Assembly: GCF_003334335.1 (NCBI RefSeq)
Contig: NZ_QOWQ01000124.1
Reading direction: 5' to 3' (one strand)
DNA from: Escherichia coli
GTDB taxonomy: Bacteria; Pseudomonadota; Gammaproteobacteria; Enterobacterales; Enterobacteriaceae
Length of the DNA: 1,072 bases
Below are positions 1 through 1,072 of the stretch, piece after piece. A program made the translations under genes and the position numbers. The number at the start of each line of letters is the position of its first letter. The stretch's first letter is position 1. The notes under the pieces are model-generated. The model did no database searches, was not told the origin of the DNA, and saw only the letters and a program-made list of their open reading frames with translations.

Positions 1-89
1 CACATGCTGAGGGTGCTGTCCGGGTGCAGCTCCGGGTCGGGCAGGCGGTTACCTGCCGGGTCTGTGGCATACGGGATATCAATGCCCAG
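1..89 (-). pseudogene. Orphan Rhs core fragment, 5'-truncated (internal core segment, no start codon in window; continues beyond position 1). May be annotated as a partial RHS repeat protein CDS or as a pseudogene
   Basis: Minus-strand translation of 89..3 is LGIDIPYATDPAGNRLPDPELHPDSTLSM. From memory, IPYATDPAGNRLPDPELHPDSTL matches an internal segment of enterobacterial Rhs cores roughly 300 residues upstream of the core C-terminus. GC content is about 66% (my hand count), like Rhs core and unlike the AT-rich DNA next to it. The frame is open from the immunity stop (123..125) to the window edge, with no ATG or GTG upstream of the homology. Confidence 0.6.
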
Positions 90-122
90 GTTACATATAA
101 TAATAAGAGCAATTAACTTAAT

Positions 123-449
123 TTATTTGTTTATAATGCGCTTACTTAATACAAACCATTGAACATACCCTCCTGACAGAAAATAAAGCCATATTATTAT
201 CGCCATAATATACTTACTATCAATCCTTACGCCAATAATGTCTGATACAGCCCCTATAAATATTAGAGCAATAAAGAATACTTTGCCTGTTGGAAAACAT
301 ATTACCATCATTCCATAAGACATGAGACTAATTAACTCGCTCACATCACGAGTGGAGTCTAATAGTGAAAGTCTATGCATGGAAAAGAATAGTATTAAAA
401 GCGATAAAGCCAGCCATATAGCTCTGAATAAAAAAATAATATATTTCAT
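123..449 (-). CDS. Putative cognate immunity protein for the Rhs CT toxin; small polytopic inner-membrane protein (108 aa, about 4 predicted transmembrane helices)
   Basis: ORF of 108 aa with ATG at 449..447 overlapping the toxin TAA stop by 1 nt (minus-strand TAATG). A GGAG Shine-Dalgarno sits 7 nt upstream. The protein is very hydrophobic, with about four helix-length hydrophobic stretches (YIIFLFRAIWLALSLLILFFSM, ISLMSYGMMVICF, VFFIALIFIGAVSDIIGV, YIMAIIIWLYFLSGGYVQWFVL) and a short basic C-terminus (SKRIINK). Position immediately 3' of an Rhs CT domain is the canonical immunity-gene arrangement. AT-rich like the toxin domain. Confidence 0.8.
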   Translation of the reverse strand: MKYIIFLFRAIWLALSLLILFFSMHRLSLLDSTRDVSELISLMSYGMMVICFPTGKVFFIALIFIGAVSDIIGVRIDSKYIMAIIIWLYFLSGGYVQWFVLSKRIINK

Positions 450-1072
450 TACATCACTCCGGTGAATACAAATCTAATAAAACGTCCAATGTTATTTCCG
501 GAGCACTTCATCTTACATGTTTCTAAAGAATCATTAGACCAGTCTTGGCAGTTTTTAAATAGCCCTAAATTTATAGGTGTGAATATATCAGGCAATACAG
601 AATAACGCGGCCTTACCTCTTTAAACTTCCCTTTTAAACAGTTCTCCACACAACTATTATCGGTTTCAACGAGGTCACAACGGCCAGCAGCTTCTTTTGT
701 ATCATTACTTGCTTTACCTGGCCCCCATAGACCATCTCCTTTTGATTCTCCCCGTTGGTCTTGGCCACCACAAGTATAGTCCCCTTTACCATCTGGGACA
801 CAAAGATATTGATGATAGAACGGATTCCCCCATATATCTGGACCGCTTCTTTCACCAGTTCCGCCCATTGAATGCAGTGGCTTAATGCATTTTAGTGTTT
901 CTAATCCTAATGGATCTATATTTGAGATCGGATTCAACGGATACTGATAAAAATTCCATCCCCCTTTCAGCCCAATCGGATCCTGAGTGATATATCGCCC
1001 CTGCAGCGGGTCATAATAGCGGTGGCGGTTGTAATACAGGCCGGACTCCTCATCATACTGCTGCCCCGGCAG
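449..1072 (-). CDS. Rhs-family polymorphic toxin, C-terminal part (5' end lies beyond position 1072): end of conserved Rhs core plus variable C-terminal toxin domain of unknown function
   Basis: The minus-strand frame is open from the window edge. My translation of 1072..902 is [57 protein letters not shown], which I recognise from memory (not database-checked) as the conserved C-terminal end of enterobacterial Rhs cores, finishing in the DPxGL motif. The supplied ORF 449..937 is the same frame; its reported 'M' is a TTG codon (935..937) encoding an internal Leu, so the true start is upstream of the window. After DPLGL there are 150 non-conserved residues (901..452) and a TAA stop at 449..451. 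Confidence 0.9.
457..460 (-). promoter_or_regulatory. Shine-Dalgarno (GGAG) for the immunity gene, embedded in the last codons of the toxin CDS
   Basis: Minus-strand sequence CCGGAGTGATGTAATG: GGAG, a 7-nt spacer, then the ATG at 449..447. The spacing is typical for a bacterial ribosome-binding site and consistent with translational coupling. Confidence 0.55.
902..916 (-). other. DPLGL (DPxGL) motif marking the boundary between conserved Rhs core and variable CT toxin domain
   Basis: Codons at 916..902 on the minus strand translate to D-P-L-G-L, directly preceded by the conserved [11 protein letters not shown] context. In Rhs/YD-repeat toxins this motif is the established core/CT demarcation and autoproteolysis region. 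Confidence 0.8.

Follow-up and report, generated by a model that had tools for sequence, protein, structure and literature searches.

The probable 5′ boundary of ybfO, an orphan rhs-CT module at the rhsC locus of Escherichia coli

We characterized a 1,072-nt stretch of Escherichia coli DNA (hereafter the window) and found that its first 122 nt very probably (we put the probability at about 0.85) form the 5′ boundary of ybfO, an orphan rhs-CT module of the rhsC locus. The feature is already known, being annotated in E. coli K-12 as ybfO/ybfC, a pair that belongs to the class of orphan modules that Jackson et al. (2009; PMC2935791), Poole et al. (2011; PMC3150448) and Koskiniemi et al. (2014; PMC3967940) have described. 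A literature search on 'ybfO' found no paper analysing it. The anatomy of the locus is that of the class: the fragment lies behind a main pair, rhsC (1,397 aa) and ybfB, and begins at window 77 or 92; only the 3′ part of the main gene's core (rhsC nt 2695-3738) is represented in it; sequence scans find no initiation signals at its 5′ end; and in K-12, outside the window, a variant of the demarcation motif PxxxxDPxGL is followed by an unrelated tip and by a small ORF of its own, ybfC.

Results

The window covers the 3′ end of the E. coli rhsC locus, which lies on its minus strand. It aligned at 99.7-99.8% identity, across its full length, with the E. coli rhsC-ybfB region, and in the K-12 locus sequence (L001) it corresponds to positions 7877-8948, with three mismatches (99.7% identity). 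The gene order in K-12 is ybfA-rhsC-ybfB, then an N-terminally truncated RHS pseudogene (ybfO), ybfC, three ISAs1 (H-repeat) transposase remnants and ybgA. All coding sequence of the window, and each feature described here, is on the minus strand. Window 902-1072 contains the 3′ end of the rhsC core, its hyperconserved region of 57 codons; this part was recognized from its translation, from the K-12 annotation and from matches to the NCBIfam RHS_core model (model positions 1205-1261) and TIGR03696, and it closes with the demarcation motif DPLGL at window 916-902. The variable 150-aa tip of the main gene, the putative toxin RhsC-CT, follows at window 452-901 (GC 0.41, with nine cysteines in its translation), and the rhsC stop codon stands at window 451-449. 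Overlapping this stop by 1 nt is the ATG of ybfB (window 123-449), a putative immunity gene from the ORF list that encodes a hydrophobic product of 108 aa, is annotated as 'protein YbfB' and ends with a TAA at window 125-123. Next come an AT-rich 45-nt spacer (window 78-122), which forms the 3′ end of the RhsC-CT/ybfB cassette and is also found at the rhsA locus, and ybfO, the orphan Rhs core fragment, whose initial 77 nt fall within the window (1-77) and which runs on past window position 1. The fragment of the source strain is thus visible for 77 nt only, but the identical junction and gene order make it the same feature as ybfO/ybfC of K-12.

The three substitutions that distinguish the window from K-12, at window 283, 251 and 164, all lie in ybfB and are all non-synonymous (I to K, T to A and I to V). 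The change at window 283, from I to K, is missing from the closest complete genome too, and it places a charge within a hydrophobic stretch. Stop and start codons overlap in both toxin/partner pairs, as TAATG in rhsC/ybfB (window 447-451) and as ATGA in ybfO/ybfC (L001 10374-10377), an arrangement that would be consistent with translational coupling.

Downstream of the ybfB stop codon the reading frame continues as IKLIALIIICNLGIDIPYATDPAGNRLPDPELHPDSTLSM, forty sense codons that extend to window 3. An earlier note on this DNA, made from its letters alone, had described a return to GC-rich sequence after ybfB and a preceding AT-rich stretch that did not look Rhs-like. Both descriptions agree with our measurements, since GC content rises from 0.267 in the spacer (window 122-78) to 0.675 in window 77-1, and strict identity to the core begins only at window 77. 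From that base onward, all 77 positions are identical to rhsC nt 2695-2771 (L001 7001-7077; E=1e-35), a match far above chance. The strict breakpoint lies between window 77 and 78, and it is fixed independently by genomes that do not have the junction, because in these a junction-spanning query matches only from the base equal to window 77. The junction is as sharp as the earlier note had claimed, and this breakpoint refines the position 'about 80..122' given there. Immediately before the shared ATCCCG (window 77), the rhsC core reads GCGAATCTGGATATCCGC and the orphan fragment reads TGTAACCTGGGCATTGAT.

The alignment to the upstream rhsC core, which had been proposed as a way to map the truncation, placed it at rhsC nt 2695, or aa 899 of 1397. 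A weak echo of the core at window 92-78 (8 of 15 nt, N-L-x-I-x in protein) is of a strength reached by ~1.6% of rhsC 15-mers, and it may move the truncation point back to window 92, the position at which the pseudogene starts in the PGAP annotation. We give the truncation point as a range, rhsC nt 2680-2695; identity is strict from window 77 onward. Another core lineage, such as RhsD, was considered as the origin of the NLGID echo and was rejected because RhsD has DLDIR there.

That the orphan fragment and ybfB share a reading frame had also been pointed out, and the frame was confirmed, but it is a one-in-three coincidence and has no evidential weight. It does raise the formal alternative that ribosomes read through the in-frame TAA of ybfB, the only stop codon between the two, and so make a YbfB-YbfO fusion. 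TAA is the most efficient stop codon of E. coli, no recoding signal is evident, and the junction is invariant across genomes, so that conservation of the frame is uninformative. With a shared frame expected in one case out of three, we regard such a fusion as exceedingly improbable.

The fragment is start-less, as had been proposed. No ATG, GTG or TTG occurs among codons 1-39 after the ybfB stop, and the fortieth codon, an ATG at window 5-3, lies inside the homology, where it encodes an internal Met of the Rhs core. Consensus scans found no promoter- or terminator-like site in window 1-122. The MG1655 annotation nevertheless takes this ATG as the start of ybfO (b0703, a pseudogene of 1,434 nt), and expression without any rearrangement has to be considered, either as a 477-aa YbfO from the window 5-3 ATG or as a short toxin transcript from an internal promoter close to the demarcation motif, which would form a toxin-antitoxin pair with ybfC. 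The ATG is in frame and the reading frame behind it is intact, and there is a precedent in Salmonella, where Starsta et al. (2020; PMC7043789) described an internal P2 promoter, 89 nt upstream of the demarcation motif, that drives orphan Rhs-CT expression; such promoters are used there with CTG/ATG starts, and P2-like sequences were reported for some E. coli. However, no Shine-Dalgarno-like sequence is present in the 20 nt preceding the window 5-3 ATG (ACCCGGACAGCACCCTCAGC), consensus scans show no promoter at the P2-equivalent site, and the product of the unrearranged Salmonella orphan was undetected by immunoblot (Koskiniemi et al., 2014; PMC3967940). When the Salmonella P2, taken from the supplement of the paper, was aligned to both E. 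coli copies, its -35 element TTGACG corresponded to ATGATG and its -10 element TACAAT to TACAAC; a Salmonella-type P2 was accordingly rejected for ybfO, its elements not being conserved. This divergence weakens the case for independent expression, which we consider improbable.

Beyond window position 1, the ybfO fragment of K-12 has an open frame for all 507 codons and is annotated by PGAP as a pseudogene, 'RHS repeat-associated core domain-containing protein, missing N-terminus'. It matches positions 908-1261 of the 1261 positions of the NCBIfam RHS_core model (NF041261; E=3e-230) and hence comprises the last ~28% of the core; its score of 767 falls below the full-length cutoff of 2000 because only 28% of the model is present. 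The other two Rhs/YD-repeat core models were matched significantly as well (TIGR03696 with 83.8 bits against a cutoff of 32.5, and Pfam PF03527 with E=1.8e-14). The orphan repeats rhsC nt 2695-3738 over 1,045 nt at 96.7% identity, with 32 mismatches and 2 gaps. In protein, 338 of 356 residues are identical to RhsC, after which the tips diverge completely. The orphan core ends with PLNPVQYIDSMGL, a DSMGL variant of DPxGL, and passes into YbfO-CT, a 152-aa C-terminal tip that has no similarity to RhsC-CT; the start of ybfC (189 aa) overlaps the ybfO stop. The replacement of DPxGL by IDSMGL before the YbfO-type tip (L001 9906-9918) is also seen in full-length Rhs proteins that carry this tip. The partial core, second motif, different tip and small ORF bear out the earlier note's reading of the fragment as an orphan rhs-CT module and its expectation of what lies past position 1. 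Its further suggestion of a cassette array with more pairs held for one second pair, but this is a single module, and the ISAs1/H-repeat remnants come next.

The toxin roles of RhsC-CT and YbfO-CT and the immunity roles of ybfB and ybfC are putative, being drawn from their positions and from the biology of the family. No NCBIfam relatives were found for RhsC-CT, YbfO-CT, YbfB or YbfC; the three of these scanned against Pfam (YbfO-CT, RhsC-CT and YbfC) had no significant match; and PDB sequence searches with RhsC-CT and YbfO-CT returned no relative. YbfB is small and strongly hydrophobic and the N-terminus of YbfC is a signal-peptide-like segment, which hints that both putative toxins may act at the cell envelope.

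When complete E. coli genomes were searched with a 161-nt junction-spanning query (full coverage, at least 98% identity), the exact junction was found in 2,660 of 5,426 (49%). This result indicates that these copies probably go back to a single shared event. YbfO-CT/ybfC DNA is more widespread: 3,615 genomes contain it, and it exceeds the junction by at least 955 genomes. Two states of the locus can be distinguished: the K-12 arrangement of RhsC-CT/ybfB/junction/ybfO/ybfC (state A), and a full-length Rhs with YbfO-CT, then ybfC (state B). At the ybfA-ybgA locus, state B consists of a 1,399-aa full-length Rhs that ends in YbfO-CT, with ybfC directly behind it and neither RhsC-CT nor ybfB; it was inspected in nine strains, including O157:H7 EDL933 and the K-12-like LR-27 and ET210. 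At the rhsB locus of another strain, a 96%-identical copy of the YbfO tip was found on a full-length Rhs. Its presence on full-length proteins at both the rhsC and the rhsB locus marks YbfO-CT as a genuine, exchangeable Rhs tip.

Two further observations were made behind the YbfO-type tip. In EDL933, the full-length Rhs with this tip is intact and ybfC is annotated as frameshifted (L003 7458-8028), an unexpected pairing of an intact putative toxin with a broken putative immunity gene; a match longer by 1 nt was seen in four O157 genomes among the matches listed, EDL933 included, and not in a fifth, H79. Behind ybfC, some strains have small genes annotated as NTF2-fold immunity protein or DUF6258 (L003 8299-9355, L005 8271-10408 and L012 6297-6476) without adjacent toxin fragments, which are possible stand-alone orphan immunity genes.

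The junction was also found outside the rhsC locus. At the rhsA locus (yibF to yibH) of strain AHM21C2872I, an rhs gene with RhsC-CT is followed by ybfB and by the identical spacer and junction, behind which lie a truncated core with the RhsB tip, its partner yhhH, then yibA and a further core remnant. This order, RhsC-CT/ybfB/junction ahead of RhsB-CT/yhhH at the rhsA locus, occurs in 26 genomes. Two more of the rhsA-locus genomes were inspected besides AHM21C2872I, and in one of these, F8111-1SC3, the rhsC locus itself is in state B. The rhsA-locus cassettes lie at L016 2548-10444, in L018 and at L019 6002-11042; in L019 the first rhs copy is also N-terminally truncated, which makes every tip there an orphan. 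The unit between the repeats measures 1,871 nt; of these, 1,044 nt are core, and the rest is made up by the tip, by ybfB and by the tail of 45 nt. The junction, then, travels with the cassette, and its occurrence before different displaced tips at different loci matches a prediction of the circle model of Jackson et al. (2009; PMC2935791).

The earlier note had suggested a search for recombinant isolates in population genomes. Isolates in which YbfO-CT/ybfC is attached directly to a full-length Rhs of this locus do exist, as described above for state B, but they could have originated by main-orphan recombination or could be ancestral. At 28 diagnostic sites that distinguish core copy 1 from core copy 2 of K-12, the nine state-B alleles had patterns resembling copy-1-to-copy-2 chimeras: LR-27 was purely copy-2-like, three alleles had a single clean switch from 1 to 2, each at a different position, and more complex mosaics were seen as well. 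These patterns were rejected as proof of recombinants, because rhsA and rhsB of K-12 contain identical haplotype blocks with identical boundaries, and gene conversion between paralogous cores is therefore a possible source of the state-B pattern. Over about 5.8 kb, none of the state-B alleles proved to be an exact chimera of the K-12 haplotype, in a comparison with few state-A references; even the best-fitting chimeras left 2-21 mismatches within the repeat and 9-93 within the 5′ region. No import tract was seen next to nt 2695, and core mismatches were scattered along the whole core without directional signal. Between K-12 and four state-B strains there were 0-1 nt differences in the 1.2 kb upstream, in ybfC and in the 1.9 kb of ybgA-phr, and 9-81 nt differences in the rhs 5′ core. 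The variant blocks in the 5′ 2.7 kb of the rhs core (L001 4307-7000 compared with L004, L006, L007 and L010) are common to rhsA and rhsB, and such block sharing suggests that paralogous cores may undergo intense gene conversion. Given the near-identical flanks, states A and B interconvert or pass between strains, fast relative to the divergence of the flanks, and the direction may be either way.

Discussion

The anatomy of the locus, the junction shared by so many genomes, the recurrence of YbfO-CT on full-length Rhs proteins and the presence of the cassette at another rhs locus form a pattern that fits C-terminal displacement by core recombination. By this route, a 1.87-kb cassette would have entered a resident rhs gene via homologous recombination in the conserved core, bringing with it the final ~1,044 nt of an Rhs core together with the RhsC toxin tip, ybfB and the AT-rich tail of 45 nt. 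The RhsC tip of the cassette would thereby become the expressed one, and the previous tip, YbfO-CT, would be displaced downstream together with ybfC and the last ~28% of the core, without a start codon. The junction at window 77/78 would then mark where the end of the cassette itself meets core nt 2695. In the model of Jackson et al. (2009; PMC2935791), a circle carries a partial core, a tip and downstream genes, and one crossover displaces the old tip. The same product could equally come from a linear fragment that recombines in each of the two repeats. As it stands, the orphan ybfO is presumably silent. Recombination across the 1-kb direct repeat of 96.7% identity would delete RhsC-CT/ybfB and re-attach YbfO-CT to a full-length delivery protein, a step that we infer from the repeat structure. 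The full-length forms with YbfO-CT may also be the ancestral state rather than main-orphan recombinants.

Alternatively, ybfO could be a decaying relic, the dead pseudogene of a past insertion, of which at most ybfC is kept as a stand-alone immunity gene against neighbours of the YbfO type. Both the MG1655 and the PGAP annotation call it a pseudogene, its boundary lacks a start codon and, by scan, a promoter, and the SNP and chimera tests gave no demonstrable natural main-by-orphan recombinant. Furthermore, the strain that matches the window most closely, 23AR1101, has its orphan split in two, with both pieces shortened, and some strains have IS1 insertions at the rhsC locus. A pure relic is plausible for some strains. 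K-12 is not known to have a type VI secretion system, and tip switching would therefore have no delivery consequence in that strain. Set against decay are the 507-codon frame, which is intact in K-12, the occurrence of the same tip in intact form on full-length Rhs proteins in many strains, and the presence of both locus states on near-identical flanks, implying recent interconversion. In addition, a 1-kb repeat at 96.7% identity is a better recombination substrate than the Salmonella repeat of 522 bp at 95%, which is itself sufficient. Taken as the general explanation, we therefore think the relic unlikely, if by no means negligible, and we prefer to see ybfO as a displaced module.

It is also conceivable that the 1.87-kb unit (core from nt 2695 onward, RhsC-CT, ybfB and the 45-nt tail) behaves as a discrete, reversible cassette: as a circle, it would enter and leave any clade I rhs gene through single homologous crossovers, and window 77/78 would be the 'circle junction' that it brings along. 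We put this forward tentatively, at well short of even odds.

Among known systems, the nearest parallel is the orphan rhs-CT (STM0292)/rhsI-orphan of Salmonella Typhimurium LT2, which likewise has a start-less partial core, a distinct tip and its own small ORF. In LT2 and at ybfO alike, a direct repeat with the main gene is the substrate for recombination, and the repeat is longer and slightly more similar at ybfO (1,045 nt, 96.7%) than in LT2 (522 bp, 95%). In LT2, main and orphan rhs recombine over this repeat and the resulting fusion deploys the orphan toxin; recombination, toxicity and immunity were all shown by experiment there (Koskiniemi et al., 2014; PMC3967940), whereas ybfO is known here from sequence. 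The two also differ in that the internal P2 promoter of LT2 is not conserved at ybfO.

The dissociated tips described by Jackson et al. (2009; PMC2935791) resemble ybfO in lying downstream of an intact gene, in a trough of low GC, with a core near-identical to that of the upstream gene. The Serratia marcescens genes SMA1612/1614/1616 and the E. coli clade IV locus in that work share with ybfO the combination of a partial core, variable in length, the hyperconserved end and an unrelated tip; their cases form a string, whereas ybfO is a single displaced tip. The same authors stated that the clade I loci of E. coli are generally without dissociated tips. The rhsC locus, a clade I locus with a dissociated tip in about half of complete genomes, is a common exception to that statement.

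A more distant likeness is found in contact-dependent inhibition (CDI), in which the demarcation motif is VENN and differs from that of Rhs proteins. Orphan cdiA-CT/cdiI pairs resemble ybfO in that the displaced pairs keep a conserved upstream piece and are without initiation signals (Poole et al., 2011; PMC3150448), but they belong to a different protein family and to CdiA/CdiB two-partner secretion rather than to an Rhs shell.

Orphan toxin/immunity modules constitute a reserve stock of contact-dependent weapons, and they explain how Rhs toxins diversify and how the toxin that is deployed and resisted can change. In this respect, ybfO/ybfC is nothing new in kind. The exact breakpoint, the 49% frequency of the junction and its recurrence at rhsA before a different displaced tip are modestly useful by-products, which together offer a natural system amenable to tests of the displacement and circle models, in the bacterial species with the best sampling; a portable junction and a two-state polymorphism are useful for tests of the displacement model with population data. 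If the cassette should prove reversible, the two-state polymorphism, with the junction in roughly half of E. coli, would reflect ongoing gain and loss and not one ancient insertion. In that case, the circle model of Jackson et al. would become directly countable in population genomes, and their view of E. coli clade I loci as generally free of displaced tips would be contradicted.
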